Source: a bacterium
GTDB lineage: Bacteria > Babelota > Babeliae > Babelales > JAUWHS01
Length of the DNA: 54,614 nucleotides
NCBI GenBank assembly: GCA_043818275.1
Contig: JBDRFY010000069.1
Coordinates: 1 to 54,614 of the forward strand
Direction: 5' to 3'
Part shown: one piece after another, positions 8,701 through 50,186 of the stretch
Layout of the letters: each line of letters opens with the position of its first letter
Position numbering within the stretch: position 1 is the first letter of the stretch
The notes under the pieces: generated by a model
Seen by the model: only the letters and a program-made list of their open reading frames with translations
What the model was told of the DNA's origin: nothing
The model's database searches: none
Position numbers and translations under genes: made by a program

Positions 8701-8986
8701 GGTCACAAGTCTACCTAAACTTCAAACTCTTTTAAAAACAATGCTAAGCTTGCCAAATTTTGTCTCTGATAAAGACGCAATTAATGCAAAGCTTACAAAG
8801 GTTGCTGAATTAATTCAAAGGAACGCTGGCGTGACAACAGCAACAACAACGACTCAAGCCACAACAACTACGCCTCAAAGAACAACACCTTCAACAAGAA
8901 TAACAACTGTTCCTCAAACAACAATAAGAGGAAGAGCTATAATACCAACAAGACCATCAGTAGCAACATCTATGCCTGCGGCATAA
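5705..8986 (+). CDS. Large exported modular protein: MIR/beta-trefoil-like domains, FAMeT-like (Methyltransf_FA-like) domain, helical repeats, Thr/Arg-rich tail
   Basis: AAGGAG RBS; signal peptide; YGSILRFKN and GDIVAIKCL trefoil-like starts; YEVVIGG...SLIR...YWV...EWTDP...VKYIGLS pattern at ~7040-7450; helical C-terminal half. Confidence 0.7.
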   Translation: MEIRKNILYVLTTFLILSNFLSVQSLDIGEYEEGALKKASIKRKAVTPTPDILSYGSILRFKNENTATFIGLEGSSVGGKEDSTLDTYWYIYPENIEDKDLKNKYAIKNGATVRIVNVVTNKELEGHTWILEAIGSIEYYLKKDNRLVFKNPDDGTYLTGSLDISGNTSLYKLTTQTKLSGYSYWSIADFYPSYLESDFKSGDIVAIKCLFNDKFLTFFQDRIEVISVRNFPNPPDKIFFQNLASPMRDNTDNDESKFQFVREKGSIGFKSLAPTGKDHFIRANNTKDVGHDRAFMQGQKEYFYNRGLVQIWSKTLGEWERFKPEHFHIKGLGSNGYLAYLYTISKYLESLGNRGRSVTRNDSPIHNGIETDAVILSTYDNVYFSEGKPNKKTPKGLFAIIKISGDPIMPIIPEEEIIEGPIEEPEIKLEKALMGKYENWKEITQQGLADVIFEAKALDNIMIGLAPEAKDYKKDEKIYEVVIGGGVGNEANTYSLIRNTHMGKASDPKIGTYKMGKDIPNKDWNSYWVRIIDQKISFGSGRTPGENMILEWTDPTEPGILVKYIGLSNYKDPVYFKNIEYLTPEVEEEVKAEFFTDKLKNARSIKIFKDMIDKYISLIPEAGESESKTKVFFDEIIWLSQNTPKGKEVELQRLVESVRWNPKLVRPTTENIINYLTIEAGTPMSFDKKIATFEGLINQAYTDEQVKAFLTDNREDIVSLLKILAEEGIESSPANMKRVQGVIETLVYDPIFADYVTLLESIASELTKPITVETLLERIASESATADEPTEIRFIKTTTNLLQKEFGPLIEEVKTGAISEESKQKIINLEKLLNSIIYGIEFEGLHKNIAKEWLARLPKTTAGLIIVETPGESATNEEKVNYLIAATTNETLKSAEKKKIFFEIISQLVKDKNLPADLIEKVRTVLGIIKWHPDVNDQEDALVKYYETQISIPVTIDDQINDLLNRILTITDEAGKKTFLTKVDKVIEATEKDINESKKVTSLPKLQTLLKTMLSLPNFVSDKDAINAKLTKVAELIQRNAGVTTATTTTQATTTTPQRTTPSTRITTVPQTTIRGRAIIPTRPSVATSMPAA

Positions 8987-9019
8987 TTTAAAATAAATTT
9001 AATTATATGGAGAATAGTT

Positions 9020-10465
9020 ATGAATAAAAAAATAAGTAAATTAATGATTTTAGGATTACTCATATTTACAACAATCAATATTTATTCATTTTCGTTTTTT
9101 GACCTTGTCGGAATCACTAGTACTGAACCAACTTTTCAGGATTCTTTGGATAAAATTCAGGCTGTAGGAGAGTTGCAGGATTTAATAACGAAAGCCCTGG
9201 AATCCCAGCAAAACCTAACCGCATTTACAAAAAAGCTCGAAGATTTTGTAAATGAAAGAGAAGAATTTGAATTAGATACAATCAAAAAAGTAATAAATTA
9301 TATTTTATATAATCCGGAAATATCCAAATATCCAGCTACTCAAAAAATCTTAACAGAATTAGGAACGCGCGCGGCCAAACCGATGACTACTATGGAAATA
9401 TTACAAGTTATGCAACAAATGGCTTCTGACCCACAAAAAATACTTTTATTAAAAGAAAATCCTGAAAAAACTATGCGTAGTCTGGTCTTGTTTGTATCAG
9501 AACGAAATGATGAAACAAAAAATAAATTAACTGATTTATTAAATTCCATAAAAGTTCGTAAGATTTTTACGGATCCGGGATATACAGAACAACTTGATGA
9601 ATTAATAGCGCTTATCCCACAAACTGTCTCGCTTTATGAAAAAATATATACACTGTATTTAAAATTAAGAAAAATTGATTCAACAGAAGCTATAAATACA
9701 TTATTAACTCTTATGTCTGAATACAGAAAAGCAACAGCCGAAGAAAAAAATAAGGTCTTGGATAAATTAGAATTATTATTAAATTCAATTATTTATAGTC
9801 CTAAATTTTCTATTACCCAACAACAACAAGCTTTAACATTATTAAATGAAGTTAAAAAAGAAGAAGTTTCAGGCAAAGAACCTACTAAATATTCTGAGAA
9901 AATAGATTTTTACTACAAAAAGGCACTGAATGATTTAACATCACCAGAAAATAAATCTAATCTTTTGGCTGGTCTGGCAACTTTATCTAAAGAAAAAATG
10001 AAGGCTGCTGGAAACGATCTTCAAATTCTTTTGTCAATTTTAAAATTTTTGCAACAATCTCCTTATTTTACTGAAATGGAAAAAATCCAATTAGCTCAAT
10101 TTATTATAGATATTGAAGCAGAAGTTTCTGTGTCAGATTTAATAGGCAAAATTTATAGTTTACTCGGAGCAGCCCAAACAGACACAGCAACAAGAGATTA
10201 CATTGTAAAATTAGTTGAAAAGGCGGTTAACAGTCTAATTGAACAAATTAAAAAAGATAAAAAAATTCCCGCGGAAAATGAAACTCTTAAAAATTTACTT
10301 ACCCTTTACATTCTCGAATCACCAACATACGCAGCAAAAAAAGCTGATATAGAAAAGCTACAAAATAATTTAAATACAGAAATCGCTGCAATTTCTCAAC
10401 CTGCAGCTCAAACAGCAGCAACAACAACAATATCAACTGATATAAGAGGACGATTAAGAAGATAA
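9020..10465 (+). CDS. Exported all-helical repeat protein, paralogous to the C-terminal half of 5705..8986
   Basis: GGAG RBS; signal peptide; LELLLNSIIYSPKF matches LEKLLNSIIYGIEF in the upstream protein; tail TTTISTDIRGRLRR. Confidence 0.7.
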   Translation: MNKKISKLMILGLLIFTTINIYSFSFFDLVGITSTEPTFQDSLDKIQAVGELQDLITKALESQQNLTAFTKKLEDFVNEREEFELDTIKKVINYILYNPEISKYPATQKILTELGTRAAKPMTTMEILQVMQQMASDPQKILLLKENPEKTMRSLVLFVSERNDETKNKLTDLLNSIKVRKIFTDPGYTEQLDELIALIPQTVSLYEKIYTLYLKLRKIDSTEAINTLLTLMSEYRKATAEEKNKVLDKLELLLNSIIYSPKFSITQQQQALTLLNEVKKEEVSGKEPTKYSEKIDFYYKKALNDLTSPENKSNLLAGLATLSKEKMKAAGNDLQILLSILKFLQQSPYFTEMEKIQLAQFIIDIEAEVSVSDLIGKIYSLLGAAQTDTATRDYIVKLVEKAVNSLIEQIKKDKKIPAENETLKNLLTLYILESPTYAAKKADIEKLQNNLNTEIAAISQPAAQTAATTTISTDIRGRLRR

Positions 10466-10474
10466 GGAACACAA

Positions 10475-11257
10475 ATGAATCTCAAACATCGGTTTTATTT
10501 TTTCAGCTTAATTATTCTTATATCTTTTTTTGAAATTCAAACAAGTGAGATAAATCTAAATCCGGAAGGAGGCGCCTTAACAGGCGCCTCTTTTCAAAAA
10601 GATGAAACAACAGACCAAACAAGTTTAGAAAAATCAGAAGAAATTTTGGTAAAAAAAGATTCATCAATTGAACAAAGCAAAACAATTGAAGAAATTAAAA
10701 CTGAAAAAATTAATTTGGAAAAAAACATTGAAACTTTAAATCAAAAATTAAAAAACCGTATATTCGATAAAGAATTTATTGAAATTGTAAAAACAACAAT
10801 TGAACAAAAAGTAAAATTAAATTCCGAACAGGAAAAAAAATTAATCACAATCATAATGGAAGCAAGATCAAGAAGTATTGGGGACACAAAAAAAGAATTA
10901 CAAAAAATACTTGAAGATTTATATAGACCGCCCCAAAAAAAAACATCTATTAAAAAGGAAGAACAGGAAAAAGAAAAAACAACAATTGAACAATTAAAAG
11001 AAAAAATAGAAAAAAATCCAAACATCTCTGCTGATGAAAAAACTGAAATTATTAATCTTATAAAAAAACTTGAATCAGAAATAAAAAAGAGCAACGTAAC
11101 ACAACGCATGCAAATACCTGAACAAAGAATTCAGACAACAAGAAGAAGTGAAGGTAAAAGAGTTGATCCATTTACCGTAGAAGATACTTCAAAAAGAAAA
11201 ACTCAAATACTAAAAACTTCAACTAAAGGAAGAAAAGAAACTGTTATAAAAAGATAA
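10475..11257 (+). CDS. Exported Lys/Glu-rich coiled-coil hypothetical protein
   Basis: AAGGA RBS overlapping the upstream stop; hydrophobic N-terminus; heptad-rich body. Confidence 0.65.
   Translation: MNLKHRFYFFSLIILISFFEIQTSEINLNPEGGALTGASFQKDETTDQTSLEKSEEILVKKDSSIEQSKTIEEIKTEKINLEKNIETLNQKLKNRIFDKEFIEIVKTTIEQKVKLNSEQEKKLITIIMEARSRSIGDTKKELQKILEDLYRPPQKKTSIKKEEQEKEKTTIEQLKEKIEKNPNISADEKTEIINLIKKLESEIKKSNVTQRMQIPEQRIQTTRRSEGKRVDPFTVEDTSKRKTQILKTSTKGRKETVIKR
10564..10595 (+). terminator. Intragenic GC-rich hairpin resembling an intrinsic terminator
   Basis: GAGGCGCCT-TAAC-AGGCGCCTC followed by TTTT, inside the 10475 ORF. Confidence 0.4.
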
Positions 11258-11286: not shown

Positions 11287-13668
11287 ATGAAAATATTAAA
11301 TTTTTTATCCAAAGGATTATTTATCTGCCTGGCAACGTTTCTATCCAATTCTCCGACAAATGCTTTAACGTATCAGGATGTTCAAAATGCTTTAAATGGT
11401 TCTCAAACAGCTGTAAATAACATTATTAATTTTCAAAATCCTGTAACACAGGCAATGGGTATATCAATACCGAAACCTAATTTTATTGCAGAATTTACAA
11501 ACACAAAAAGAAGGCTTGAAGACACAATAAATTTAATTCTTGCATATAATCAAACAACTCTTAATTCTTCAGCTGTATCAAATTTAATAACTGAAGCTCA
11601 AACTTCTGCAAATAATGCTAACCCTAGTAATTCAGCAAATAATTATGGTCGCGATTTTCTTGTAAACGCGCAAGCTAAATTAACATCAGCTTTTAATTTA
11701 TTAAACACACAACAGTCACAACCACAACCACAAGTTCAACTAGTAACGACAATTCCTGATGGCAGTTATATTAAATTAAAAAATATTAAAACAGGCAGAT
11801 ACTTAACAACTAATCCTTATTCCGGAAATAATCCGGCAATTGGACTAACCCTTGAAAACACAACCAACCCAGAAACTCAAACATACTTAGTTAAAGGCTC
11901 AAATGGAAACTATCAATTAGTTGGAACAGCTGGAAGCCAAAGAGGGGCTTTATTTGTTAGTCCACAAAGCGCTTACTTTGACCACACGGAAAATTGGGAT
12001 AATAGTACTACAATGCAAATATACAAACAAGTAAATAGCAATATATATTACTTAACAAATCCATCTCTTAACGGAAAATACATAGGTATAAGTGATAAAA
12101 TAAGTTTCCCAAGAGATTTAAATTTATTTGATGAAAATGCAAAATGGGAAATAATTCAAGTCACTGTGCAACCACAGCCTCAACCAACAATGCCATTTAA
12201 TGATGGTGATCTTGTAACAATTAAAAGTTATGATAATCAATACTTGCAAATGCCTACTCAATTACCATCAGTAGGCTATTATCAAGCTCAATTTACAAAT
12301 AAAACAAATCAACCTAATCAAGTATTTAAAATAAAAAAATATACAAATAATTACTATGCTTTAATTGGCACTAAAACTGGAGAATATACTGGAGCTAATT
12401 CAGGATTCCTCGGTGCATACAGCCCTTATTCAAGTAGATTCGAAATTAAAGATACGCCTGGCGAAAACAATTATTTCTTATTATATAACAAAGGTGATTA
12501 TAGCTTCGCTATTAAAAACACCAAATATAATAAGTTTGAAGAAAAATCTGGACCTTTTTTAAAGGATACTGATGCAACATTTAATAATCTTCCAGCTTCA
12601 GCTATTTTTACAATCGAAAAATATACAGCTCCAACCATACAACCACAGCCACAACCAGAACCGCTACCAAATCCAACAATGCCATTTAATGATGGTGATC
12701 TGATTACAATAAAAAATTTAAATGGAATTTATTATCAAATGAGCGATAATAATCAAGGTCAATTTTATTACAATACATTCAAATCCCCCAACCAAGTTTT
12801 ACGAATAAAAGTAAATCCTAATAACAGTTATTCATTCATAGGAACAGTAAATGAAAAATCTGGAATGTTAAAAAGTGACCCAAGCTATGCTAGATTTACT
12901 CTCAACCAACAGATAGCTAATCCAGAAAACTCTTTTACTCTTTTTAGTAAAGGAGACAATTCTTTTGCTATCTATAATATCGGCTCTAATAAATTTGAAA
13001 ATCAAGATAGTTGGGCTTTAAAGGATACCGCTCAACCATTTAATACCCTTCCTGCTTCAGCAATTTTTACAATTGAAAAATATACGCCACAACCAGAACC
13101 ACAGCCACAACCAGAACCACAGCCACAACCAGAACCACAACCAGAACCACAGCCACAACCAGAACCACAGCCACAACCAGAACCACAGCCACAACCAGAA
13201 CCACAGCCACAACCAGAACCACAGCCACAGCCAGACGAGAAAGCAAAACAAATAGCCGATCTTCAAAATCTATTAATTCAAAAACAAACAGAACTAAGTC
13301 AAACTTCTCCAGTAAACAGAATAAAAAGGTCTCAACTTAACAGCGAAATCACAAACATTCAAAATCAGATAAACTCTCTTCAGGGAACAACAACTACTCC
13401 TTCAACAACAACTCCAACACAAGTTGTAACTCAACCAACAACTGTTGTAACTCCAAGAGGAGGTGTAACTCCCCGGGTTTATCAACGGCCTGGCGGAACC
13501 AAAGTAAGTCCATCCTCAGCTTTTGGCAGAACAGCTGCAACAGGAAGAAGTACTGCTCAACCGACATATCCAACAACAAGAACAGGTCAAGCAGTACTCC
13601 AAACAAGTACAACAGCGACAGGAAGAGGCGGTTACCAGGCAACAACTCAAACTTCACAACGATGGTAA
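11287..13668 (+). CDS. Exported protein: helical N-domain, three beta-trefoil-like domains, PQPE linker, Thr/Arg/Gly tail
   Basis: GAGGAG RBS; signal peptide; DGSYIKLKNIKTGRYLT and twice MPFNDGDL.TIK...LPASAIFTIEKYT. Confidence 0.7.
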   Translation: MKILNFLSKGLFICLATFLSNSPTNALTYQDVQNALNGSQTAVNNIINFQNPVTQAMGISIPKPNFIAEFTNTKRRLEDTINLILAYNQTTLNSSAVSNLITEAQTSANNANPSNSANNYGRDFLVNAQAKLTSAFNLLNTQQSQPQPQVQLVTTIPDGSYIKLKNIKTGRYLTTNPYSGNNPAIGLTLENTTNPETQTYLVKGSNGNYQLVGTAGSQRGALFVSPQSAYFDHTENWDNSTTMQIYKQVNSNIYYLTNPSLNGKYIGISDKISFPRDLNLFDENAKWEIIQVTVQPQPQPTMPFNDGDLVTIKSYDNQYLQMPTQLPSVGYYQAQFTNKTNQPNQVFKIKKYTNNYYALIGTKTGEYTGANSGFLGAYSPYSSRFEIKDTPGENNYFLLYNKGDYSFAIKNTKYNKFEEKSGPFLKDTDATFNNLPASAIFTIEKYTAPTIQPQPQPEPLPNPTMPFNDGDLITIKNLNGIYYQMSDNNQGQFYYNTFKSPNQVLRIKVNPNNSYSFIGTVNEKSGMLKSDPSYARFTLNQQIANPENSFTLFSKGDNSFAIYNIGSNKFENQDSWALKDTAQPFNTLPASAIFTIEKYTPQPEPQPQPEPQPQPEPQPEPQPQPEPQPQPEPQPQPEPQPQPEPQPQPDEKAKQIADLQNLLIQKQTELSQTSPVNRIKRSQLNSEITNIQNQINSLQGTTTTPSTTTPTQVVTQPTTVVTPRGGVTPRVYQRPGGTKVSPSSAFGRTAATGRSTAQPTYPTTRTGQAVLQTSTTATGRGGYQATTQTSQRW
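13087..13233 (+). repeat. Coding minisatellite, 18-bp unit CCACAACCAGAACCACAG (PQPEPQ)
   Basis: Seven identical full units, one 12-bp unit (13123-13134) and a partial final unit. Confidence 0.97.
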
Positions 13669-13872: not shown

Positions 13873-14664
13873 ATGAAGGTTTTATGTAATTTTTTAATTT
13901 TAACATCATTATTTTTTAATTTAACTTTTGCGCAAAATTCCAATCAGGCATCTGAAGAAATTTTAAACCCTGGATTTATCAAAATTAAGGCAGCTAACAA
14001 TAAATATGTATCAATTAAAAATAGCCCAAATAATTATAGTTTTGACTTATCTTTAGAAGATTTTTCAACCAACAGCGAACCAAGACAAACTTTTTTCATT
14101 GTTCAAAAAGAAGGAAACCCAATAATTTTTGGGTCTTTAAATCCAAAAGATTACACCTTTCATTCAGAATTAGATCTTTTGGGTAACAGCAAAAATTTAG
14201 GTCAAGGATTTCTAAGCCCTTACAGAAATGGCAGTTTTCAAACAAAGTATTACAACGATTTTTCAGCAAACGTAATTAAAACATTTAAAATTACTGGATC
14301 AACCAATAAATATTTAATAACAAACGTCAATGAATTTAATTCAAAAAAAGAAAATAGTTTTTTTGGTATTGACGCAAATGGAAACTTTACAATTGGATTG
14401 AATAAAAATGATCCTAATGCCCAATTTGAAATAGAACAAGCAACCATACCGGTTAATTTAGAAAAACAAGTTCAGCCAACAAAAAAAGTTGTTCAGCTGG
14501 AATCAAAAAAATTAACCCCGGCAGAACAAAAAAGACCAAAATTAGCTCAATCCACATTAAGAACTCCGCTCGAAAAAAAAGATGAAGGTTATACAGGAAG
14601 AGTTTATAGAAGACCTTCCGGACCATCTGTCACGGGAGGAGGAAGAATCGTTACAAATTTTTAA
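13873..14664 (+). CDS. Exported single beta-trefoil-like domain protein with Arg/Gly tail
   Basis: AAGGAG RBS; signal peptide ending TFA; GFIKIKAANNKYVS...NAQFEIEQ resembles trefoil units of its neighbours. Confidence 0.65.
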   Translation: MKVLCNFLILTSLFFNLTFAQNSNQASEEILNPGFIKIKAANNKYVSIKNSPNNYSFDLSLEDFSTNSEPRQTFFIVQKEGNPIIFGSLNPKDYTFHSELDLLGNSKNLGQGFLSPYRNGSFQTKYYNDFSANVIKTFKITGSTNKYLITNVNEFNSKKENSFFGIDANGNFTIGLNKNDPNAQFEIEQATIPVNLEKQVQPTKKVVQLESKKLTPAEQKRPKLAQSTLRTPLEKKDEGYTGRVYRRPSGPSVTGGGRIVTNF

Positions 14665-14702: not shown

Positions 14703-14709
14703 AAACACA

Positions 14710-17700: not shown

Positions 17701-18646
17701 TATTTGGGGCCTAGGGCAAGATAACAAAGCTTATATGTGGAATGGTTCTGAATGGATTGATAAATCAATAGGAATGAAATTTAATTATATTTCTGTTGGA
17801 ATAGATGGAACAGTTATGGCCCTTGATTCAACAAATAAGCTTGCAAGTTGGACAGGTTCAAACTGGACAATTTCACCATTCAAAGTTCATCAGGTAAGTG
17901 TTACAAATAAAGACAAACATTGGGCGATAACAAAAGAAGAAGATGGCAGTTTCAATGTTTATAAATTTGTTGATAACGGATATGTTTTAAGAGCCAAAAA
18001 TTTACAACAAGTATCAGCGAATCTTGAAGGAACTTTATTTGGAATAAGTACTTTAAAAATATCTGGTGGATTTAAAATTTACGCAAGAATCATAAAACTT
18101 TACGGCAAAATTCTTGATAAATTAAACAACGCAAAAGAAAAAACAACAGTAAAAGAAAAAATCGAAGAAATAAATAAAGCGATTGACCTGGCAGTTGCCG
18201 AAAAAGTTGCTGCGGAATTAACATCTGATGAATTAAGCGCTCTTAAATTAGAAACATACACGGAACTATACAATATTTTATCAAAACAATTAGAAGCAGC
18301 AAAAACAGAAAATGTACTTAAGGAACTTAAAAATCTTGTAACTAAGGCGGGAGCTTCTGTTTTAATCGCGGATAATATTAAACCATTGTTAATTAGTTAT
18401 GCTGAAACAAAAATTATACTTGAAGAACCTAAACCAGAAACACCCGCAACCGCAACAACAGCAACCGCGGCAGATAGAAGAAGAATAACAACAACCACTT
18501 ACACCCCACGGGGAAGAGCCGTAGGTCCTTCACAACAAACAACAACAAGAGGAGGAACTGTTATTCCCGTACAACAAACAGCAGTTCCAGCAGCAACAAC
18601 AGGCGGCTCAACAACTCAAGACATAATTGCTAAAAAAACTCTATAA
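14795..18646 (+). CDS. Large exported modular protein: helical N-domain, beta-trefoils, FAMeT-like domain, tectonin-like propeller, helical domain, Thr/Arg tail
   Basis: AAGGAG RBS; signal peptide; tectonin-like blades PGGLTQVSVG, YKHVSVGDD, MKQIEIGSKDYIWGL, YISVGIDGTVMAL; GNGFITFQVK...FWITI. Confidence 0.72.
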   Translation: MKSWNFLSKILFICFATLLFNTTKAVTYDEVKKTLDYAESKVNEILRHTKPTTEVKFTPIKELNMDFVNLYNITKQALNNTGNLINSYNIETNNNANVTFKVNEAKNLLNSAGAKKDGGDHNHGRDWLVNALNKLKEAFNLLQEQTISGEGEVGPLKNYSLVTIKVNNKYLSADIISDTPQIKLVDKLQAPYQGNNNQIFIIRKSGEYVAFQSMKDFINDGNFLEFNINNEAKLLNQGFDSGKFFRLNAVSGKTNTYYIFSYPRQTYVMQTGETIKTGYAQSDIGNKVSAQFEIKEFTLDDPAAKTILNPTFYRPDLVTIRNVGQNKYLSGSYNEAGYGGNINQSRALQLVDKPIPLTSVFKIAKSDQDLTKQDPNYRDWFDKPGYETWFSFIATYRLGFSGGQRGLMDIADEGYFNLTVATNAYRNFELSRVPNTEKEYYIIKNQFHNKYLRVSGGKLLADQNDAGSAMADQHCWFEIAEFKMEPNLYILNKETENFKFPSAGNGFITFQVKTPNRLELTFLDNNNNTIGKIVFSKNEISGEFQTTSFRVRQDNIFDSDSTKFSPFWITISNQTLITGKGDTAGQNTLNLETEGNVKQASLKIPALTNIVAVKFAGDPNTFLFKPSVTQPTVTIDIPPKPGEGETIVKLESGYYKIKNVETNTYMTIKDSNLDADIYNTNGKPWVIYSLRFENPINNATQIFKIEETDGWHKIIGSLDATYQLPNSGIIDTGLGTAYFNKQFDFSTYRKIKITQKAGVLGSFITSEKDANSKYGVEANKLMKDKANPRFIFEKVMVPDATTIEPIAELKVEKYDLDINEVPGGLTQVSVGGNLICGINSSNRLYKWDNAKNTWTLFSDANYKHVSVGDDNIVLTLGTDNKIYTRKDDKWLLFGKGILPTTPTITTQTETANSTPSGELPVPGSLPAPTTLPTPPSTPTLPVIGPDGIAYFATAQAIQMKQIEIGSKDYIWGLGQDNKAYMWNGSEWIDKSIGMKFNYISVGIDGTVMALDSTNKLASWTGSNWTISPFKVHQVSVTNKDKHWAITKEEDGSFNVYKFVDNGYVLRAKNLQQVSANLEGTLFGISTLKISGGFKIYARIIKLYGKILDKLNNAKEKTTVKEKIEEINKAIDLAVAEKVAAELTSDELSALKLETYTELYNILSKQLEAAKTENVLKELKNLVTKAGASVLIADNIKPLLISYAETKIILEEPKPETPATATTATAADRRRITTTTYTPRGRAVGPSQQTTTRGGTVIPVQQTAVPAATTGGSTTQDIIAKKTL

Positions 18647-19207: not shown

Positions 19208-19253
19208 CAACAGGCAAAATGACAATATGGTAAAAAATATAAAAGGAGAGAGA

Positions 19254-21803
19254 ATGAAAAAAAATCTTATAGTTTTATTAACACTTTTTACAATCAACAT
19301 TTGTAACGCCATAGACATCAACATACCAATCATAGATAAAAAAATAACACCATTTGAAGGTTTTGAACCTGGTGAAGTTTTAAAATTTGCTGGTAGACTT
19401 ACAGATAAAACAATTAATGCGATTAAAGAAAAAGTAACAGAAGCTACCAACAAACTTCAATTTTGGAAAGAAGAAGTCAAAAAGCAAGAAAAAAGTGTTC
19501 CTATAAATGTCCCTTATAATTATGAAGAACTTTTATCGGTAGATAATCAGGATTTCTTTACACAAATTTTTGGAACAGCAAAACAAATATCTGTCGGAAA
19601 AAATAAAGATAAAATGTCTGTCTGGATTATCGGAACAGAAGGTATTCCTTACGAATATAATCCTTCCAATAAAATACATAATCTTTCATGGATAAAGCAA
19701 ATAAAAAACTCGGGTATAACAAAAATTGCTGTTGCTGAAGACGGAACTCTTGCCGGAATAGATTCAAATGGGAATATAGCAATATATAAAAATAATAAAT
19801 GGGAACCAACAAAAACAACAAAAAATGGCATAGCAACCAAAATGACTGCGGAGGCAGCTGAAAATTTCAAAGCTGTTGATGTTGATATTGCAAATGAAAA
19901 AGAAATTGTTTATTTAAACGAAAATGGAGACATTTACAAATCTGATGATGGGGGAATGAATTGGAAATCATTGCCATCACTAAAAAATGAAGAAAAATTC
20001 CAGAATGTTTCCATGGGAGCTGATGGAACAATTTTTGCCTGCGCGGATAATTTAGCCGCTTATCATTTTGATGAACAAAAATGGATAGCATTTCCTAATA
20101 AAATTAAAAAAATTGCAGCCGGAAGCAAAACCAACCTGGTTGGAATTTCAAAAGACAACCAGTTATTAATCTTTGACGCAAGCGAAAATAAATGGATGCT
20201 GCAAAAAAATTTAATCTCTGATGCCGCAAAAAAAGGCAAAACAATCGAAGTTATAGATATCGCAACGAACAGTTCCGGAAACATCTGGGCAATAACAAAT
20301 AAAAATGAAATCATAACTAACATCGCAGCAAATACAAATGACGCTTTACAAAAATTAAAATCAGGAAAAGTCATAACAATAAATAGTTTAAGCGAAAATA
20401 AATTTTTAAGAGTTGAAAACAAAGAAAGAAATTATTTAAAACCTACAGCAACAGACCCGGAAGATCCAAACACTTTATTTACAATAATTCGTTCCGGACA
20501 ATATTTTGGACTTCAATATAAAAATCAGTTTGTTACATGTGATCCAAACGAAGGCCTTGGAGAATTTAAAGGCTCAATTAAATTATCGCCTAATTTTTCA
20601 TCCGGAGAAAAATGGCTGCTTTCTGGTGAATTAGAACAATCAACAATTACAAGTTATGCAAACAAAAAAAATCTAACATTTATTGATTTGGAAACAATTT
20701 TAAAAGAAATTAAAAAAATTCAAATGGAAGCTATAGAAAAACAACATACAGAAGCTCAAATAGCTGCTGCTGCCGGAACTTCCGGTCTTGGAACAGCCGC
20801 GGCAGGTGTTACAACTGCAGCAGGAGCTGGAATTGGCGCTGTTGTTGCTGGCGTAATTATGGCAGTTATGGGAACAGTTGTTCCTGGCGCCGGGAACATT
20901 AGTGGAGCCCTGATTGGACTCGCTATTGGAGGTGCAATAGGAGGAACTTTTGGAGGTATGCTTGGCTTCTCAATGGCCACTTCTGGATTTGCTGCAAATG
21001 CTGTTATTGCAACAGCCATTGAATTTCAGCATCAAAGATCTGCTGCAGATGTGGAAGATTTGGCAAGTCCTGTTTTAAACAATCCGGGATTATTGGGCAA
21101 AATTGTTATGGCATACTTTTTAGCAACTGAAAAAAGCGATCAGGAATTTTTACCGACCTTATTCGATATAGAAATTCAAACAAAAAAACAAAAAGAGATG
21201 CTGGCAACAGACGAAAAAGATTTTAAGCAAGATTATCAATTTGAAGTTCCCGGAAACGGATTTATCAAATTTAAATTAACCGGCAGCCCTTTAAATTTCT
21301 GGCTATGGGATGAAGACAAAAAGGAAATAATTTTGCCTGGAATAATTGGCGGACAAAATAATACAACAATTTCAATTGGAACCCCAACCGGCTGGCAACC
21401 AATTGTAAAAAAATATGAAATAATAAAACCAAATACTCCAAATTCATTCTGGATTGAAATTAAGGACAATAAATTAATAATTGGGTCAGGAGATTTAATC
21501 GGTTCGAATAAAATTGGCGAAAGTGAAACAATAGAAGATCTCTCAAAAGTTAAATATGTCACATTTAGTAAACTTCCAACCTCTGATGTGGAAATTTCAG
21601 AAGTTAATTTTTACAGTAAATTATTAAGCGAAGAAAAACCAATTGAAAAAATTGAAATCACAGAAAAAGAAAGAGCTGAACAACCTAAATTTATTTCTCC
21701 AGCGCCAAAACTTATTTCTCCTGCTCCAACAAAAAAAGAAGAAACAAAACCTGAAAAAATTATTGTAACAGAAGAAGAGGAAGAAGCTTACGGCGGGATT
21801 TAA
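19254..21803 (+). CDS. Exported tectonin-like/beta-trefoil/FAMeT-like protein with glycine-zipper hydrophobic insert (paralog A)
   Basis: ATG 19254 after AAGGAG matches the paralog start; blades KQISVG, TKIAVAEDG, QNVSMGADG, KKIAAGS; Gly/Ala segment ~20755-21020; ends EEAYGGI. Confidence 0.75.
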   Translation: MKKNLIVLLTLFTINICNAIDINIPIIDKKITPFEGFEPGEVLKFAGRLTDKTINAIKEKVTEATNKLQFWKEEVKKQEKSVPINVPYNYEELLSVDNQDFFTQIFGTAKQISVGKNKDKMSVWIIGTEGIPYEYNPSNKIHNLSWIKQIKNSGITKIAVAEDGTLAGIDSNGNIAIYKNNKWEPTKTTKNGIATKMTAEAAENFKAVDVDIANEKEIVYLNENGDIYKSDDGGMNWKSLPSLKNEEKFQNVSMGADGTIFACADNLAAYHFDEQKWIAFPNKIKKIAAGSKTNLVGISKDNQLLIFDASENKWMLQKNLISDAAKKGKTIEVIDIATNSSGNIWAITNKNEIITNIAANTNDALQKLKSGKVITINSLSENKFLRVENKERNYLKPTATDPEDPNTLFTIIRSGQYFGLQYKNQFVTCDPNEGLGEFKGSIKLSPNFSSGEKWLLSGELEQSTITSYANKKNLTFIDLETILKEIKKIQMEAIEKQHTEAQIAAAAGTSGLGTAAAGVTTAAGAGIGAVVAGVIMAVMGTVVPGAGNISGALIGLAIGGAIGGTFGGMLGFSMATSGFAANAVIATAIEFQHQRSAADVEDLASPVLNNPGLLGKIVMAYFLATEKSDQEFLPTLFDIEIQTKKQKEMLATDEKDFKQDYQFEVPGNGFIKFKLTGSPLNFWLWDEDKKEIILPGIIGGQNNTTISIGTPTGWQPIVKKYEIIKPNTPNSFWIEIKDNKLIIGSGDLIGSNKIGESETIEDLSKVKYVTFSKLPTSDVEISEVNFYSKLLSEEKPIEKIEITEKERAEQPKFISPAPKLISPAPTKKEETKPEKIIVTEEEEEAYGGI

Positions 21804-21933: not shown

Positions 21934-24306
21934 ATGAAAAAAAATCTTATAATTTTGCTAACACTTTTTACAATCAACATTTCTAACGCAATAGATATCA
22001 AAATACCAATCATAGACAAACCGGTAACAATTGCTGAAGACTTTCAACCCGGAGAAGCTTTAAAATTTTCAGGAAGACTTACAGACAAAACAATTAACGC
22101 AATAAAAGAACAAGTAACAGAAGCTACCGACAAACTTCAATTCTGGAAAGAAGAAATCAAAAAACAGGAAAAAAGTGTTCCTATAAATGTCCCTTATAAT
22201 TATGAAGAACTTTTATCGGTAGATAATCAGGATTTTTTCACACAAATTTTTGGAACTGCAAAACAAATATCTGTTGGAAAGAATAAAGATAAAATGTCTG
22301 TATGGATTATTGGAACAGAAGGTATTCCTTACGAATACAATCCTTCAAATAAAACGCATAACCTTTCATGGATAAAACAAATTAAAAATTCGGGAATAAC
22401 AAAAATTGCCGCAGCTGAAGATGGAACGCTTGCTGGAATTGATTTAAATGGAAATATTGTAATATCAAAAAATGACAAATGGATTCCAACCAAAACAACC
22501 AAAAATGGAATAGCCATGAAAGTGACAGCTCAAGAAGGTGAAAATTTTAAAGCTGTTGATGTTGATATTGCAAATGAAAAAGAAATTGTTTATTTAAATC
22601 AAAATGGAGATATTTATAAATCTGATGATAGCGGAAACAATTGGAAGATATTACCGTCTGAACCTTCTATAAAAAAAGATGAAAAATTTCAAAATGTTTC
22701 AATAGGAGCAGATGGAACAATTGTCGCGTGCACAGATAAACTTTCAGCTTATTATCTTTATGGCCAAAGATGGATGAATTTTCAAGTTAAAATAAAAAAA
22801 ATTGCCGCTGGAAGCAAAACAAATCTGGTTGGAATTTCTAAAGATAATCAGTTATTAATTTTTGACGCAAATAAAAATAACTGGATGCTGCAAAAAAACT
22901 TAATCGCTGATACCGCAAAAAAAGGAAAACCAATTGAAGTCATCGATGTCGCAACAAACAGTTCCGGAAACATCTGGGCAATAACAAATGATAATAAAAT
23001 AATATCCAACATCGCGGCGAATACAAATGAAGCTTTGCAAAAATTAAAATCGGGAAAAATTGTAACAATAAATAGTTTATGTGAAAACAAATTTTTAAGA
23101 GTTGAAAACAAAGAAGGAAATTATTTAAAACCTACAGCAACCGATCCGGAAGATCCGAACGCATTATTTACAATAATTCGCTCAGGACAATATTTTGGTC
23201 TTCAACAAAGCAACCAATTTATTTCATGTGATCCAAATGAAGGAGTTGGAGAATTTAAAGGCTCGATTAAATTATCGCCAAATTTTTTGGCAAATGAAAA
23301 ATGGCTGATTTCAGAAAAATTAGAACAATCAACAATTACAAGTTACGTAAATAAAAAAAATCTGGCTACCGTTCAATTAGAAAAAATAGTTCTTATATTA
23401 AAAGAAGAACAAATGAAACAGATACAAAAACATCACGATTCCTGGCATGGAATGGCACAAATAATAAGATATGTTCTTCCACTTGACCTACCAACAGCTA
23501 TTGCGGCAGCATTTGCTGTAGCTACAGTAGTTGAATTTCAAAGACAAAGAACTGTGGCAGAACTTGAAGATTATACAAATCCTGTATTACAAAATCCTGG
23601 TCTCTTGGGACCAATGATTGCAATGGCTTATTTACCCCCAATATTTAAAGGAGATGAAGAAGATCTAACCGCTCTATTTGATATAGAAATTCAGACAAAA
23701 AAACAAAAAGAAATATTAGCTACAGATGAAAAAGATTTTAGAAATGATTATCAATTTGATATTCCCGGGCAAGGATTTATCAAATTTAAAGTAACAGGCA
23801 ACCCTTTAAATTTCTGGCTATGGGATGAAGACAAAAAGGAAATAATTTTGCCTGGAATAATTGGCGGACAAAATAATACAACAATTTCAATTGGAACTCC
23901 TACCGGTTGGCAACCAATTTTTAAACAAGATGAAATAGTAAAACCAAATACTCCAAATTCATTCTGGATCGAAATTAAGGACAATAAATTAATAATTGGG
24001 TCCGGAGATTTGATAGGATTAAATAAAATTGGCGAAAGTGAAAAAATAGAAGATCTTTCAAAAGTTAAATATGTCACATTCAGTAAATTGCCTACTTCAG
24101 ATGTTGAAATTTCAGAAGTAAATTTCTATAGCAAATTATTAACTCCCCGATTAACCGAACCCATAGCAACAATTCAACCTGTGCCAACAAAAAGAATAAC
24201 ACCTGCGCCAACCAAAGTTATTTCACCAACACCACAAAAAGAACAACCTAAAATCCAACCAAAAAAAATAACAGAAGAAGAGAAAGAAGCTTACGGCGGA
24301 ATTTAA
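21934..24306 (+). CDS. Tandem paralog B of 19254..21803 with an alternative central segment
   Basis: Long identical stretches (e.g. KKQEKSVPINVPYNYEELLSVDNQDFFTQIFGTAKQISVG); different shorter centre; ends EAYGGI. Confidence 0.75.
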   Translation: MKKNLIILLTLFTINISNAIDIKIPIIDKPVTIAEDFQPGEALKFSGRLTDKTINAIKEQVTEATDKLQFWKEEIKKQEKSVPINVPYNYEELLSVDNQDFFTQIFGTAKQISVGKNKDKMSVWIIGTEGIPYEYNPSNKTHNLSWIKQIKNSGITKIAAAEDGTLAGIDLNGNIVISKNDKWIPTKTTKNGIAMKVTAQEGENFKAVDVDIANEKEIVYLNQNGDIYKSDDSGNNWKILPSEPSIKKDEKFQNVSIGADGTIVACTDKLSAYYLYGQRWMNFQVKIKKIAAGSKTNLVGISKDNQLLIFDANKNNWMLQKNLIADTAKKGKPIEVIDVATNSSGNIWAITNDNKIISNIAANTNEALQKLKSGKIVTINSLCENKFLRVENKEGNYLKPTATDPEDPNALFTIIRSGQYFGLQQSNQFISCDPNEGVGEFKGSIKLSPNFLANEKWLISEKLEQSTITSYVNKKNLATVQLEKIVLILKEEQMKQIQKHHDSWHGMAQIIRYVLPLDLPTAIAAAFAVATVVEFQRQRTVAELEDYTNPVLQNPGLLGPMIAMAYLPPIFKGDEEDLTALFDIEIQTKKQKEILATDEKDFRNDYQFDIPGQGFIKFKVTGNPLNFWLWDEDKKEIILPGIIGGQNNTTISIGTPTGWQPIFKQDEIVKPNTPNSFWIEIKDNKLIIGSGDLIGLNKIGESEKIEDLSKVKYVTFSKLPTSDVEISEVNFYSKLLTPRLTEPIATIQPVPTKRITPAPTKVISPTPQKEQPKIQPKKITEEEKEAYGGI

Positions 24307-24318: not shown

Positions 24319-25608
24319 ATGAAATCAAATAAAATTTTATTATTCTTTTTATTTATCTTTTCTCAAATACTGACCGCTCAATTCAATCAAATTCCCGGAA
24401 CATTGCAAAAAATCACTGTTGGAAAAGAAAATAATCAGCTTGCGGTTTATGGAATTCATCCAAACAATACAATTTTTAAATACACACCAGGCATTACCCC
24501 TCCATGGACGGGATTTCAAAATCCTTTTTCATTAAATCAGATCGATTTGGGAAACGATGGTTTTTTGATGGGCGCAAATTTAGCGGAATCCAAAAACATT
24601 TATAAATTTGACGCGACAACAAATCAATGGATTCAGACAAATTTAACCGCGTTTCAAATTGTTGTTAACAATAACAACCTAATAATCGCTCTTGCCAAAA
24701 ATTATCTGGTTTTTGAATCAAATGATGGCGGAAACAGCGCTTATCCAATTTCTTCAGACACATTTAAAACTGTAACGGCAAGTAAAAAACCACAGGAAAG
24801 ATTAATTTTGGCAATTAATAAAAATGACAATAAAATTTACAAACATCAGGGCGGAAAAATTTGGACTATTTTTTCAAATTCAACAAATATTACAAAAATA
24901 GCAATTGGCAACGCGCAAAATATTTGGGGAATCGATTCGCAAAACAAACTGGTTAAATGGAACAATTCTACCTGGATTAGACAAGAAGAACCGCCGTTAA
25001 ATTTCATCCCGCCAATTATAGATATTTCTGTTAATTCTGATGGCGTTTTATTTTTAACAACCGACAGCGGAGAAATTTTCGCAAATATTGAAACTCAACC
25101 AATTTCACCTCAAACCAATCCTCAACAACCAATACAACAACCAACGCAACAACAAATACCTCAACAAACACAAACAACAATTCAACAGCTATCTTTAAAT
25201 CAATTTAATATTTTTAAACAACAGATTGAAACGAATCTTAAAAATCTGGAAAATCAAATTAAAGAAAATGGTGAAAAAGATCAATTAAGAGAAAAGCAAA
25301 TTGGTTATTTAAATCAACAACTCAAAGAACTGCAAAGTAAAATCGTAACATTACAAGAAGAAATCAAACAAGCCACAACTCAATCAACAATTATTCAACC
25401 ACAGATTTCACAACAAAATTTAACTGCTTCTCCACCAATTCAGGCAATTCCGGTTCAAACAACAATTCAGCAACCAGCAACAGTCCCAACTCAAATACAA
25501 TCTCAATTAACAATACAACAACCAACACAACAAACTTTTTCAACACAAAGATCAAGAACTACATCAACAGCGCCAACAAACAGCGCGGTAAGTTTTAGAA
25601 GAAGATAA
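24319..25608 (+). CDS. Exported tectonin-like propeller plus coiled coil with Gln/Thr/Arg tail
   Basis: AGGAGG RBS; signal peptide; IPGTLQKITVG, TKIAIGNAQNIWGID, DISVNSDG blades; ends SFRRR. Confidence 0.7.
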   Translation: MKSNKILLFFLFIFSQILTAQFNQIPGTLQKITVGKENNQLAVYGIHPNNTIFKYTPGITPPWTGFQNPFSLNQIDLGNDGFLMGANLAESKNIYKFDATTNQWIQTNLTAFQIVVNNNNLIIALAKNYLVFESNDGGNSAYPISSDTFKTVTASKKPQERLILAINKNDNKIYKHQGGKIWTIFSNSTNITKIAIGNAQNIWGIDSQNKLVKWNNSTWIRQEEPPLNFIPPIIDISVNSDGVLFLTTDSGEIFANIETQPISPQTNPQQPIQQPTQQQIPQQTQTTIQQLSLNQFNIFKQQIETNLKNLENQIKENGEKDQLREKQIGYLNQQLKELQSKIVTLQEEIKQATTQSTIIQPQISQQNLTASPPIQAIPVQTTIQQPATVPTQIQSQLTIQQPTQQTFSTQRSRTTSTAPTNSAVSFRRR

Positions 25609-29710: not shown

Positions 29711-30133
29711 ATGTTAAAAAATAAAATAATTTCTTTAACTTTTATATTCTTTCTATCGCTAATTTATTTTCAGAAAACAAATGCTGGAAGAATCAGACAA
29801 AAAACAAAAAATATTGATTTAATAAAAGAAGAAGTACAAAAAGAAACAAAACAACAAGCAATATCAATTGTTAAAGAACTTGAACAACAACTTGCCCAGG
29901 AAAGCAAAGCGCAAATGGAATTAATGTCGAATCAAATGAAAAAAGAATTTAAAAATGTTTTAGATAATTTGCAGGAACAAATAAAAAACAAACTTACGCT
30001 CGCATCCCAAAAAGAACTCAATTACGAACTGGAGCTCCATGAAGCAAAAAAACTTTTAACAACTAAAAAGAAAAATAAATTAGATAAGGAGTTGCAAGAA
30101 ATTACACAAAATAAAAGGAATGTGGGATGGTAA
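29711..30133 (+). CDS. Small exported coiled-coil protein
   Basis: AAGGA RBS; signal peptide ending TNA; Gln/Glu/Lys heptads; overlaps the next start. Confidence 0.65.
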   Translation: MLKNKIISLTFIFFLSLIYFQKTNAGRIRQKTKNIDLIKEEVQKETKQQAISIVKELEQQLAQESKAQMELMSNQMKKEFKNVLDNLQEQIKNKLTLASQKELNYELELHEAKKLLTTKKKNKLDKELQEITQNKRNVGW

Positions 30134-33096: not shown

Positions 33097-33975
33097 ATGA
33101 AATTTAAAAATTTAACAAAATTTTTTATATTATTTTTAATGCTCTCCCAAAACATTTCAGCTCAACCTCCTCCCCCACCACCACCTGCGCCACCAGCTCC
33201 TCCTGCGCCACCACCACCAGGCGCACCAGCAGCCCCTGGAATGCCTTCAATAAAACCAACAATTAAAAAAGATGTGTGGAATGAAAAATTAAAAAAGCGT
33301 TACAAAAACATTTTTCAAGCTTTATCCAAAAACATAATCATTCAAGCCTTAGGTAACATAAAAGAAACGCTAACTAAATTAAATAGCGGTGAGATAACAA
33401 TTCCTGAATTAGATAAATTAGGTGAAGGAGAAGGTAAAGTTCAAACCCGACAAGAAATCCAAATAGTTTACAACGCACTAAAAAATAAATTTGATGAAAT
33501 TATTTCTGATCTTGACAAGGTCAAAATTGAAATCGATGAAGAAAATGATACTGCTTACATTAAACCCTATTCTTTTGATGTTGATGAAATAGATCGAAAA
33601 ATGGCTACTTGTTGGTATCAATTAGAAAGTAAACTTGAAGAAAAAATTACAAATAAAACTCAACGAAATTTATATGTAGAAAAAATAACAACCTTTATTG
33701 ATGAAAATTTTAATATTCCAATCAGCAAACTCACAGTAAATATAAAAACAACTGAAAAAGAAGCCTCTGCCGCTGCAACAATTCAACGGGTAGCAAGGGG
33801 ATATCTCGGCAGAGAAGAAACTAAAAAAAGAAAAGAAGAAAAAGAACAAGAAGAACTTCAAAAAGAACAAAAACAACGTCAAGAATTTGTAAGAACAGGA
33901 TTGGAAAAAGCGAAACTATCAAAAGCTCTAAAACGTAGGCCTCCTACAAAAAAAAGGAAGAACAATGATGATTAA
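33097..33975 (+). CDS. Exported poly-proline and IQ-motif protein (effector-like)
   Basis: Signal peptide ending ISA; PPPPPPPAPPAPPAPPPP; AAATIQRVARGYLGR fits IQxxxRGxxxR; basic tail KRRPPTKKRK. Confidence 0.75.
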   Translation: MKFKNLTKFFILFLMLSQNISAQPPPPPPPAPPAPPAPPPPGAPAAPGMPSIKPTIKKDVWNEKLKKRYKNIFQALSKNIIIQALGNIKETLTKLNSGEITIPELDKLGEGEGKVQTRQEIQIVYNALKNKFDEIISDLDKVKIEIDEENDTAYIKPYSFDVDEIDRKMATCWYQLESKLEEKITNKTQRNLYVEKITTFIDENFNIPISKLTVNIKTTEKEASAAATIQRVARGYLGREETKKRKEEKEQEELQKEQKQRQEFVRTGLEKAKLSKALKRRPPTKKRKNNDD

Positions 33976-49300: not shown

Positions 49301-50186
49301 TACAACCAAAGGAAATTTAATTGAATATGGAACACGTGTAAAAATGCAGGTTGGAAATCAATTTTTAGTTTCCGATCCCACACTACTCAATTCAAATCTT
49401 GTTTTAAAAGGAGATACAAACAACGATAATGGTTTATTTATTATCATGAAACCAATAAACAATCAGGTACCAAGCGATCAAAATCAGATCGATACAATTC
49501 AGTCACCTCTAACACTTTTATTACAACAAATAAATCAAAATGCAGAAAATACATTCAAAACAACCGCGCAACCGGATGCTCAAGCAACAAATGGATTCGC
49601 ACAACTTTTAGTCGCTCTTTTTGAAAATAAAATAAATATTCCTTCTCTTACTTTAAATTCCATTTTCCAGACAGCAATATCGGCACAAAAACCAAATTTA
49701 TTAACTCAAGCTCAAAGAGATTATGTTACTACAAACATGATTAATAAAATTCCTGATAATATGACAGAAAAGTTTGGACCATTACTCATGACAATCATTA
49801 CTAAATTCAATGAAAATTTACGAACAATTAATTTGCCTAAACAGGCAATTGTTGTTTTTGTAAATATTGCTTATGAAAATAGAGCTTTAATGGATCCAAA
49901 CGAATTAAATGCATTAAAAAGTTTAATTACAAATATTTATGATAATTCATTATTGTTAACAGAGGCAGAAAAAACTAATTTTGCAAACTTAATTAATTCG
50001 TTGGGTGGAACAACTACCACTCAAATTTCAACAGCGCAACAAACCTTACCTTCTCAACTTCAACTTTCAACTAAAACAACAGAACCACAACCACAAAAAA
50101 TTGCAATTATAAGCAAACAAGAATTGCAACAAACTCGAGCAAATTTGCAACAACGAAGAAGAAGAATTGAAACAATAACACCATAA
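46374..50186 (+). CDS. Large exported modular protein: MIR-like domain, tectonin-like propeller repeats, beta-trefoil, helical domain, Thr/Gln/Arg tail
   Basis: GGGAG RBS; signal peptide; LKYGDRIRL, VKSGDVVRF...TQKYLH; repeated IW(A/G)....IYYR.G.T..N..G..W; ends QQRRRRIETITP. Confidence 0.75.
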   Translation: MSKKLFPRNIFLIFLFFLFTNLSPAETVLPEPGAQITLPTEEPVLEAIKSEQPTTETPFVEQATPTTQTTEGIKESTAYEKILKYGDRIRLRFANLENTTLHTQQNYYTQPNTSKNQIISGYLNVNAYQKYQQNLNDDEWIIAGPFPLPQDYKKGEAVKSGDVVRFLNPKTQKYLHYFYDEKYKAPGSDFLLEVCAFDQNSPANNWQINVVENTNVGNEIIFNKTLFTIEALNDLEKKYISISQALFMVVNQNQQVAGLTDNKNNTWFIEQPNQKPEAAPKKEITVVEEVKGEEKVKKEEQKITGLTNTMWAIDTFGRALVRENINETNQTGNNWSNVSENGLAVKIINNIAVGPQSSLWIIDNSNQLYFKQSTTPWILVPNSNENTTSQFLDIDIGTNIPGGGNYNIWAIGTNNKIYYRLGTTTSNLMGTDWQEIPFQSKLNNDLPKQISVDPIGNLAIVTTLGNIYYRQTNIQNPTGTRWLEITKNGMTTGEPIKQVRLGPNAISWALNSNQRIYFMDNIVGAGKIWQEIPDGYLTDIAINVNGTVIGINANGNLYKRVNTEISPQGSGWVKLKENVQKVCLATNNTPVCIDRSNYTFYNEKQETYTQFIGSKTSFLNTNNEWSEIPLDEIKPIGFHEITINSLGLTFALDKFFNSYYRTGITTENIKGNNWIKFNSILPLSYELSQQDGNSSLLGTNIVNTPLPTKIGITSNNPLGTTQESTTNIETLQFEAGSNGFACSLSFFENKYIVYFFDKNQKKWIPDSTSKELKQIALKTESEKHTLLAVDLNNKVFIKQNITLQNIQGDTWQEITGKDMQQIYVSPNETIWGLSTEQHHKFKNSFWVYYRKGNVWAPLNTALSKLTDTCPNFLKYGDKISLCTALNRLMQKQKAGLLLDSENYLLFANGATGKNSQTFEIINPTNSTDTSLVKYNDPIMLKTDEGKYLMIVVNKFLYTQATEQKNATTLSFGVISNTTKGNLIEYGTRVKMQVGNQFLVSDPTLLNSNLVLKGDTNNDNGLFIIMKPINNQVPSDQNQIDTIQSPLTLLLQQINQNAENTFKTTAQPDAQATNGFAQLLVALFENKINIPSLTLNSIFQTAISAQKPNLLTQAQRDYVTTNMINKIPDNMTEKFGPLLMTIITKFNENLRTINLPKQAIVVFVNIAYENRALMDPNELNALKSLITNIYDNSLLLTEAEKTNFANLINSLGGTTTTQISTAQQTLPSQLQLSTKTTEPQPQKIAIISKQELQQTRANLQQRRRRIETITP

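Follow-up and report, generated by a model that had tools for sequence, protein, structure and literature searches.

The window, which is the whole stretch of DNA analysed here (54,614 nucleotides), is an entire contig (C69) of the Babelales genome assembly GCA_043818275.1, hereafter G000 (1,325,288 bases in 92 contigs, 31% GC, 94% complete with 4% contamination). It carries a cluster of open reading frames (ORFs) whose otherwise different products end in Thr-rich, Arg-bearing tails, in which a first-pass annotation made from the letters alone had seen a possible sorting, anchoring or export signal. We show that this tail is a C-terminal extension that is specific to one family, lacks a detectable fold and carries an Arg cluster kept by selection; it is found on Sec-type lectin or solenoid proteins of a syntenic and fast-evolving gene cluster. 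All seven of the tail strings quoted in the first-pass annotation are the C-termini of ORFs, which stop at 8986, 10465, 13668, 14664, 18646, 25608 and 50186, and similar but weaker tails are present on a further two (10475-11257 and 30127-33084), giving nine cluster proteins. In the text these ORFs are named after their first coordinate.

5705..8986 (+), ORF of 1093 amino acids with a Sec-like N-terminus, beta-rich lectin-like domains including a Methyltransf_FA beta-sandwich (PF12248) at residues 445-579, and a tail
8825..8983 (+), tail of the 5705 ORF: VTTATTTTQATTTT...TTIRGRAIIPTRPSVATSMPAA; the last 40 residues comprise 12 Thr and 5 Arg, with no Lys and no Asp or Glu
9020..10465 (+), ORF of 481 amino acids with a Sec-like N-terminus and a body made up wholly of alpha-helical repeats
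10394..10462 (+), tail of the 9020 ORF: SQPAAQTAATTTISTDIRGRLRR
11135..11254 (+), tail of the coiled-coil ORF at 10475-11257 (260 amino acids): weak, mixed Lys/Arg, ..TSTKGRKETVIKR
13384..13665 (+), tail of the ORF at 11287-13668 (793 amino acids): GTTTTPSTTT...TPRGGVTPRVYQRPGG...TATGRGGYQATTQTSQRW
14587..14661 (+), tail of the beta-trefoil-like ORF at 13873-14664 (263 amino acids): GYTGRVYRRPSGPSVTGGGRIVTNF
18434..18643 (+), tail of the ORF at 14795-18646 (1283 amino acids, Tectonin PF19193 and RicinB_lectin_2): PETPATATTATAADRRRITTTTYTPRGRAVGPSQQTTTRGGTVIPVQQ..., with Arg motifs 30-55 residues before the end
25510..25605 (+), tail of the ORF at 24319-25608 (429 amino acids; Tectonin, coiled coil and a Gln-rich region): ..TFSTQRSRTTSTAPTNSAVSFRRR
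33019..33081 (+), tail of the ORF at 30127-33084 (985 amino acids): weak, QRPLTRPTRLPPQPPTTTSVI
50004..50183 (+), tail of the ORF at 46374-50186 (1270 amino acids, Tectonin and Hyd_WA propellers): GGTTTTQISTAQQ...LQQRRRRIETITP

The compositional character ascribed to these tails in the first-pass annotation, namely a preference for Arg in proteins that are otherwise biased towards Lys, together with a scarcity of acidic residues, is confirmed when the nine proteins are pooled. The last 40 residues contain 41 Arg and 18 Lys, compared with 134 Arg and 574 Lys in the bodies (odds ratio 9.8), and Asp plus Glu account for 22 of 360 tail residues, compared with 745 of 6272 in the bodies. Thr occupies 75 of the 360 tail positions and 541 of the 6272 body positions. 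Because the proteins were picked by the tail feature in the first place, p-values for the pooled composition are descriptive only. The Arg residues of the nine tails are encoded predominantly by AGA (35 of 41 codons), which is one transition away from AAA, the favoured Lys codon of this genome. By a crude hydropathy rule, an N-terminal basic and hydrophobic segment is present in all nine tail-bearing ORFs, with a maximum 10-residue Kyte-Doolittle score of 2.0-3.4 in the seven quoted ones; as proposed, tails were found with this predictor exclusively on proteins with Sec-type N-termini.

The protein bodies are mostly unrelated by BLAST, in keeping with the first-pass annotation, though several are paralogous: the 11287 ORF is related to the 14795 ORF over its N-terminal 140 residues and also to the 13873 ORF, and the alpha-solenoid C-terminal half of the 5705 ORF is homologous to the 9020 ORF. 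Nevertheless, a common layout can be discerned, comprising a signal peptide, a lectin-like head, a helical or coiled-coil stalk, a low-complexity spacer and an Arg motif, the last of which is often located 10-55 residues before the end in this genus (5705, 14795 and 46374 ORFs). Pfam detects Tectonin (PF19193) in the 14795, 19227, 21934, 24319 and 46374 ORFs and, weakly, PF12248 in the 19227 and 21934 ORFs. A protein atlas search with the 5705 ORF returned lectin-like and ConA-like leads only (scores of at most 0.81). The body of the 11287 ORF consists of beta-trefoil repeats, PQ/PE repeats and a coiled coil, and has a weak RicinB_lectin_2 match. An 18-nucleotide tandem repeat (8.7 copies, 13086-13236) encodes a (PQPEPQ)n region in this ORF, upstream of the coiled coil and the tail, which gives weak TonB and PARP low-complexity matches. 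The AlphaFold2 (AF2) model of the 9020 ORF is an all-helical solenoid with a mean predicted local distance difference test score (pLDDT) of 76, for which Foldseek gave generic ARM/HEAT-like matches with TM-scores of just 0.15-0.2. Its tail (residues 461-481), the sole one that was modelled with usable confidence, lacks secondary structure, with pLDDT values under 50. For the 13873 ORF, AF2 gave an unusable model (mean pLDDT 40.5), and no inference was drawn from it.

The suggestion that such tails distinguish exported proteins in general did not survive a comparison across the genome. Among 245 signal-peptide-like proteins of at least 200 residues, the last 60 residues have a Thr fraction of 0.054 and an R/(R+K) ratio of 0.24, compared with 0.056 and 0.22 in the bodies, and the cytosolic class gives similar Thr and Arg/Lys figures. 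Since there is no class-level enrichment of Thr or Arg, which is the outcome that the first-pass annotation itself had named first as speaking against its proposal, the tails do not mark the secretome as such. Their carriers amount to about 9 of the 351 signal-peptide-like proteins of G000, all encoded in one gene cluster. When an unbiased tail score (T+2R-K-D-E in the last 40 residues) was calculated for all 1087 predicted G000 proteins of at least 100 residues, the window contig, which has 37 of these proteins, supplied nine of the top 20 scores (hypergeometric p ~3e-9), and the remaining high scorers are ribosomal or RNA-binding proteins. A strict criterion (at least 4 Thr, at least 3 Arg, more Arg than Lys and at most 2 Asp plus Glu in a 30-residue window) was discarded as too loose, such a window being present somewhere in 75 G000 proteins; at the C-terminus it is found in seven of the 1087, five of them in the cluster. 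Thr-rich tracts in other exported G000 proteins (contigs C79, C85, C64 and C19) are non-terminal and lack the Arg part, and an all-against-all comparison of the last eight residues in G000 yielded paralogue pairs but no additional tag. In each genome a single syntenic gene cluster accounts for the tag, which is family-specific and not a general export mark.

The relatives compared were 40 listed genomes of the same order (21 families, 0.8-1.9 Mb), of which G001 (90% complete) is the sole member of the same genus; the family of G000 and G001 is designated f1. Gene order in the cluster is conserved in G001, where the cluster proteins are 25-57% identical to those of G000 and housekeeping genes 70-85%. 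The same tail score applied to 826 G001 proteins places five cluster orthologues at ranks 1, 2, 3, 5 and 9, with tails such as ..RVIQRRPTSR, ..TTRGRTTT..RGRRVIPRR, ..RQVIQRRTVDF and ..RPRVYQRRSGKRLSPTNARQIGIGF. Orthologue pairs retain their motifs, for example GRAVGPSQQ...RGGTVIP aligned with GRQVGTQQ...RGRRVIP, and the forms recognised in the genus are RV[YI]xR[RP], RG[RG]x[VI]IP and RRR. The R, V and R of RV[YI]xR, which correspond to R243, V244 and R247 of the 13873 ORF, are invariant in four paralogues or orthologues that are 22-41% identical overall. Syntenic orthologues in G001 therefore keep the tail type, as the first-pass annotation had required of orthologues, with the exception of that of the 9020 ORF, to which we return below.

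More distant representatives indicate which part of the tail is conserved. A profile of the 9020 ORF body searched against 261 genomes of the order identified homologues in four of the 12 genomes of another family, f7 (G058, G103, G118 and G125), which were covered as short loci only. Here 5705-like and 9020-like genes are arranged in tandem, as in the window, and all ten visible C-termini (eight tandem homologues and the next tectonin gene in two genomes) consist of a Pro/Ala/Lys/Glu-rich linker followed by a terminal Arg cluster, the Arg ends having been detected solely via homology of the protein bodies. At least two Arg residues lie in the last four positions of all ten ends, even after a Lys-rich linker (for example ..KKKKKVQEVPKFRGGGRRR). 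The ends recorded are as follows.

G103, C-terminal ends: ..PSPVKRRR; ..AKPTRHR
G118, C-terminal ends: ..RGRGRGDRGRGR; ..RRRGGRGGRGSARR
G058, C-terminal ends: ..SSGGRRR; ..FRGGGRRR; ..SSGGRRR
G125, C-terminal ends: ..KLRKRR; ..ARPGRRRR; ..RRVPRRR

The RRVPRRR end of G125 is close to RGRRVIPRR of G001, and in a further f7 genome (G027) two adjacent ORFs end in KKGGGRR and KTRRR. As a background figure, 20 of 1129 G000 proteins have at least three Arg in the last eight residues or RR within the last three. Two other closed ORFs at the f7 loci do not have an Arg end; one terminates in ..LVNLKVQK, and the second is probably an antisense shadow. Since Arg ends are kept in another family while the linker changes, it is the Arg cluster that is conserved, and richness in Thr characterises the genus only. 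The first-pass annotation had taken Thr-rich, Arg-bearing tails as the shared signature, and this requires correction: Thr-richness is local and is not kept outside the genus, and the tag belongs to one gene family. Counting R-R-R-stop codons across genomes was dropped, the chance expectation per genome being as large as the signal.

Searches beyond these lineages returned little. A profile of the genus tail motif (A2), run against 201 genomes of the order, matched long frames in G000 and G001 only, with three other matches in open frames of 17-32 residues that represent noise, so the genus motif is not order-wide. A profile of the 13873/11287 family in a full HMMER search of 1.84 billion representatives had three matches, namely the query, the orthologue in G001 and, weakly, a protein with ricin repeats. 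In word-indexed protein searches the 9020 ORF had two homologues, and neither the 13873 ORF nor the C-terminal half of the 5705 ORF matched anything but itself. A related-locus search recovered the G001 contig alone among genome contigs and nothing among metagenome contigs. Searches of open-access literature yielded no description of such tails and no paper that joins Dependentiae with tectonin.

The genomic setting fits that of an obligate intracellular diderm, probably of the Dependentiae/Babeliales kind, given the presence of TLC nucleotide translocases, LpxC and three secretins in G000. The TLC genes number four to six per genome in G000 and G001 (the same search had matches in none of 14 control genomes); those of G000 lie on contigs C37, C50 and C67, and comprise five intact genes and one frame with eight stops that is likely to be a pseudogene. 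LpxC was found in both genomes, and each of these, at about 1.3 Mb, has three secretins (contigs C64 and C76 in G000, C49 and C126 in G001). One G000 secretin (C64, 11816-14548, 910 amino acids) has a basic tail of its own (..KNKRSYRRNKR), with ..ARRYRRKRK at the end of its G001 orthologue. There are also three PMT_2-type GT-C transferases in G000 and three in G001. Across the 41 genomes G000-G040 such transferases occur in 14, including all six that have a tectonin-type match to the 14795 ORF, although related genomes are not independent and this is a lead only.

The interpretation that we favour, while rating it at somewhat below an even chance, is that, once the proteins have been exported by Sec, the disordered tail serves as a flexible spacer whose polycationic foot attaches the lectin or solenoid head non-covalently to an anionic surface. 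This surface would most likely be the organism's own outer membrane bearing lipid A or lipopolysaccharide (LPS), so that the lectin heads would be displayed toward host glycans. The guanidinium group binds phosphate groups better than Lys does, and selection for phosphate binding could explain why Arg is favoured. The Thr-rich spacer might in addition be O-glycosylated, a possibility raised by the presence of the three PMT_2-type GT-C transferases. The frequent location of the Arg motif 10-55 residues from the end in this genus is easier to explain if the motif works as a charge cluster than if a free C-terminus is recognised. A conserved Arg-specific C-terminal element on an exported lectin-like family is a concrete, testable candidate that could account for the surface retention or hand-over of some of these host-interaction proteins.

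A number of observations weigh against this interpretation, several of which would be expected if the tails were instead near-neutral low-complexity extensions, generated by replication slippage in 3' ends rich in ACA, CAA and AGA, with their similarity reflecting shared composition and common descent. Tail similarity is largely compositional and is weak beyond composition: in Smith-Waterman comparisons of the last 70 residues against shuffled sequences the median z was 0.34, with z>3 in 9 of 105 pairs. Slippage-type DNA tandem repeats underlie Thr and Gln tracts, as neutral low-complexity growth would give; for example, a 21-nucleotide repeat at 8836-8887 overlaps the Thr-rich part of the 5705 ORF tail and another repeat at 13410-13472 lies beneath that of the 11287 ORF tail. 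The tails of four 9020 ORF homologues are wholly different downstream of a well-aligned body. Among these, the intact G001 orthologue has the end ..TTTGTQESSKLQQLFGA (..SSKLQQLFGA), which contains no Arg, with no Arg tail encoded in another frame either, and the tail is dispensable there; of the further homologues from elsewhere, one ends in ..KPTKRKNRRR and the other (P0003), which has lost the Arg, in ..AAIKTTT. The ten f7 ends are kin, representing about three gene lineages in four genomes, and are not independent. Tectonin proteins of other families mostly do not have Arg ends (there are none in the G015 L003 ORF and three L008 ORFs), and the one from G030 (L010) carries poly-Lys at its end. 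Genes and signal peptides were called with crude, home-made procedures, coverage of G001 was about 1.04 of 1.2 Mb, and we infer the anchoring role from the architecture of the proteins.

Other results weigh against near-neutral growth. Arg, mostly encoded by AGA and so a single step from AAA, is retained despite the Lys bias of the genome; the Arg cluster is terminal in all ten f7 homologues, even where the linker is Lys-rich; and the RV[YI]xR columns are invariant among proteins that have otherwise diverged widely. Two short patterns, defined after the tails had been inspected, recur in the cluster on top of the compositional similarity. T.RG[RG] occurs ten times in the G000 proteome, with five of the occurrences in four cluster tails, and R[VI][IY].R[RP] occurs three times in G000 (two in cluster tails) and three times in G001 (all in cluster tails), where shuffling within proteins predicts about 0.5 per proteome. 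We consider it rather improbable that slippage and common descent account for the tails.

The same distribution bears on a dedicated sorting or second-step export signal, in which a machine acting after Sec (a factor not yet described, or one of the three secretins) would recognise the Arg-bearing C-terminus and transfer the protein to, or through, the outer membrane. The occurrence of tails on Sec-type proteins only, the conservation of the Arg end over a family-level distance despite a changing linker, and the three secretins in each genome are consistent with this, as is the exchange of tail types between bodies, since the G001 protein that best matches the 14795 ORF over its N-terminal half has the acidic EEYGGI end described below. 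In a Dependentiae isolate 44% of coding sequences have a putative signal peptide, and the exit routes named in the available portion of that report are the Sec system and possible outer-membrane vesicles only (PMC6561590), so that the release route of many signal-peptide proteins is not described in that portion. On the other hand, a signal of this kind would be carried by only a few of the signal-peptide-like proteins, all in one cluster, its Arg motif is often non-terminal in the genus of G000, and the intact 9020 ORF orthologue in G001 has lost it. Neither co-occurring machinery nor a match to a known sorting domain was found. A sorting signal therefore appears unlikely. A more specific version, in which the oligo-Arg cluster following a disordered linker would be an undescribed Babeliales-type tag for a second step, either outer-membrane passage via a secretin or ordered display on LPS, is improbable; if true, it would be the first handle on how these signal-peptide-rich bacteria present host-interaction factors.

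Alternatively, the proteins may reach the eukaryotic host, where the Arg/Thr tails could act as short linear motifs, such as nuclear localisation signals, RRxS/T sites for basophilic kinases, RGG/RG boxes or mucin-type O-glycosylation sites. The obligate intracellular lifestyle suggested by the TLC translocases, the eukaryote-typical domain kinds (Tectonin and PF12248) and the many RRxT, RxRxxT and RGG strings in the tails would suit this explanation, as would an adjoining ORF (33097) with eukaryote-like motifs apparent by eye. Such strings are expected by chance, however, where Thr and Arg each make up 10-30% of the tail; there is no known route to the host cytosol, and the f7 tails are poor in Thr. 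We regard host-directed motifs as doubtful. The adjoining ORF (33097-33975) encodes a signal-peptide-like protein of 292 residues in which a poly-Pro run (PPPPPPPAPPAPPAPPPPGAP), an IQ-like string (IQRVARGYLGR) and PPTKKRK near the C-terminus can be seen by eye. Pfam finds no IQ domain in it at E up to 0.01, and from its sequence it may be a host-mimicking effector.

A second type of tail, which is acidic, is present on two paralogous proteins in the same cluster.

21729..21800 (+), end of the ORF at 19227-21803 (858 amino acids): acidic, ..TEEEEEAYGGI
24232..24303 (+), end of the paralogous ORF at 21934-24306 (790 amino acids): acidic, ..EEEKEAYGGI

This EE[AE]YGGI end has eight invariant columns of 24 and occurs in four proteins of G000 and G001 (in G001 at locus L013, 3446-3517 and 5181-5252); its profile (A4), run against 201 genomes of the order, matched only those four. 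Among G001 proteins, it is one of these carriers that most closely matches the Arg-tailed 14795 ORF in its N-terminal half. Two EEYGGI carriers have a Gly-zipper-like hydrophobic stretch in the middle of the protein.

The first-pass annotation had proposed a pathway of second-step export, glycosylation or surface binding, and a comparison with known C-terminal signals did not tie any machinery to the tails: VirB4 and Wzy_C/PglL were not found in G000 or G001 and no sorting model matched. The VirB/D4-type type IV secretion system (T4SS) offers a precedent for a tail of this composition, since a simple C-terminal cluster of positive residues acts as a functional signal there (PMC3297438), and the T4SS signal is described in that work and in PMC8714903 as short, unstructured, Arg-rich and poorly conserved in sequence. 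The cluster tails are likewise net positive, and that of the 9020 ORF is unstructured in its model. VirB4 (PF03135), however, was detected in neither G000 nor G001 (94% and 90% complete) by a search that was positive in the Caulobacter control. Typical T4SS effectors do not have Sec-type N-termini, whereas the cluster proteins do. It is highly unlikely that the tails are T4SS signals.

Substrates of the type IX secretion system (T9SS) are exported by Sec, then recognised through a C-terminal signal and attached to the surface; this signal is a folded domain of about 70-100 residues found in Bacteroidota. The T9SS Por_Secre_tail thus resembles the cluster tails in combining Sec export with a C-terminal element; the tails differ in being of low complexity, without Pfam or NCBIfam matches, and in the unstructured state modelled for that of the 9020 ORF. 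A Pfam scan of 15 proteins revealed no Por_Secre_tail or autotransporter domain, and an outer-membrane beta-signal, in which a terminal aromatic residue goes with alternating hydrophobic ones, is not apparent, with F or W at the end of two of nine window tails (13873 and 11287 ORFs), F in two of six G001 tails and neither in the ten f7 ends. Mucin-like linkers, which are rich in Thr and Pro and O-glycosylated by Pmt-type or PglL-type systems, occur on exported bacterial proteins, and the cluster tails share with them acid-poor, low-complexity segments rich in Thr, Pro and Gln on Sec-exported proteins. Three PMT_2 genes are present in each genome, although PMT_2 also takes in lipid A-modifying enzymes. 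Wzy_C/PglL was found in neither of the two genomes, and the f7 homologues are no longer rich in Thr.

The remaining comparison is with tripartite sorting tags, which often have a Thr/Ser/Pro-rich spacer before them. The MYXO-CTERM layout is tripartite, as set out in PMC11980579. Over the last 60 residues of all 15 tails scored, the maximum 15-residue Kyte-Doolittle mean is -0.63 to 0.67, compared with a genome-wide 90th percentile of 2.0, and 12 cluster proteins scanned against NCBIfam (E up to 0.1) matched no sorting-signal model. In the absence of a hydrophobic helix and of a model match, the tails are not signals of the sortase, exosortase, rhombosortase, myxosortase or T9SS type. A single protein of 226 residues with a classical-looking PEP-CTERM end (..VPEPCTMLLLGTGLVGLAGVRKRKKRE) is encoded elsewhere in G000, on the minus strand of contig C35 (1785-2465; contig of 3.6 kb, 32% GC). 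The cluster tails differ from the tripartite tags in having neither a transmembrane helix nor, by eye, a signature motif (LPXTG, PEP, GlyGly or Cys). What they share with the LPXTG/sortase, PEP-CTERM/exosortase, GlyGly-CTERM/rhombosortase and MYXO-CTERM/myxosortase systems is the combination of an N-terminal Sec signal with a C-terminal tag that has a basic end.

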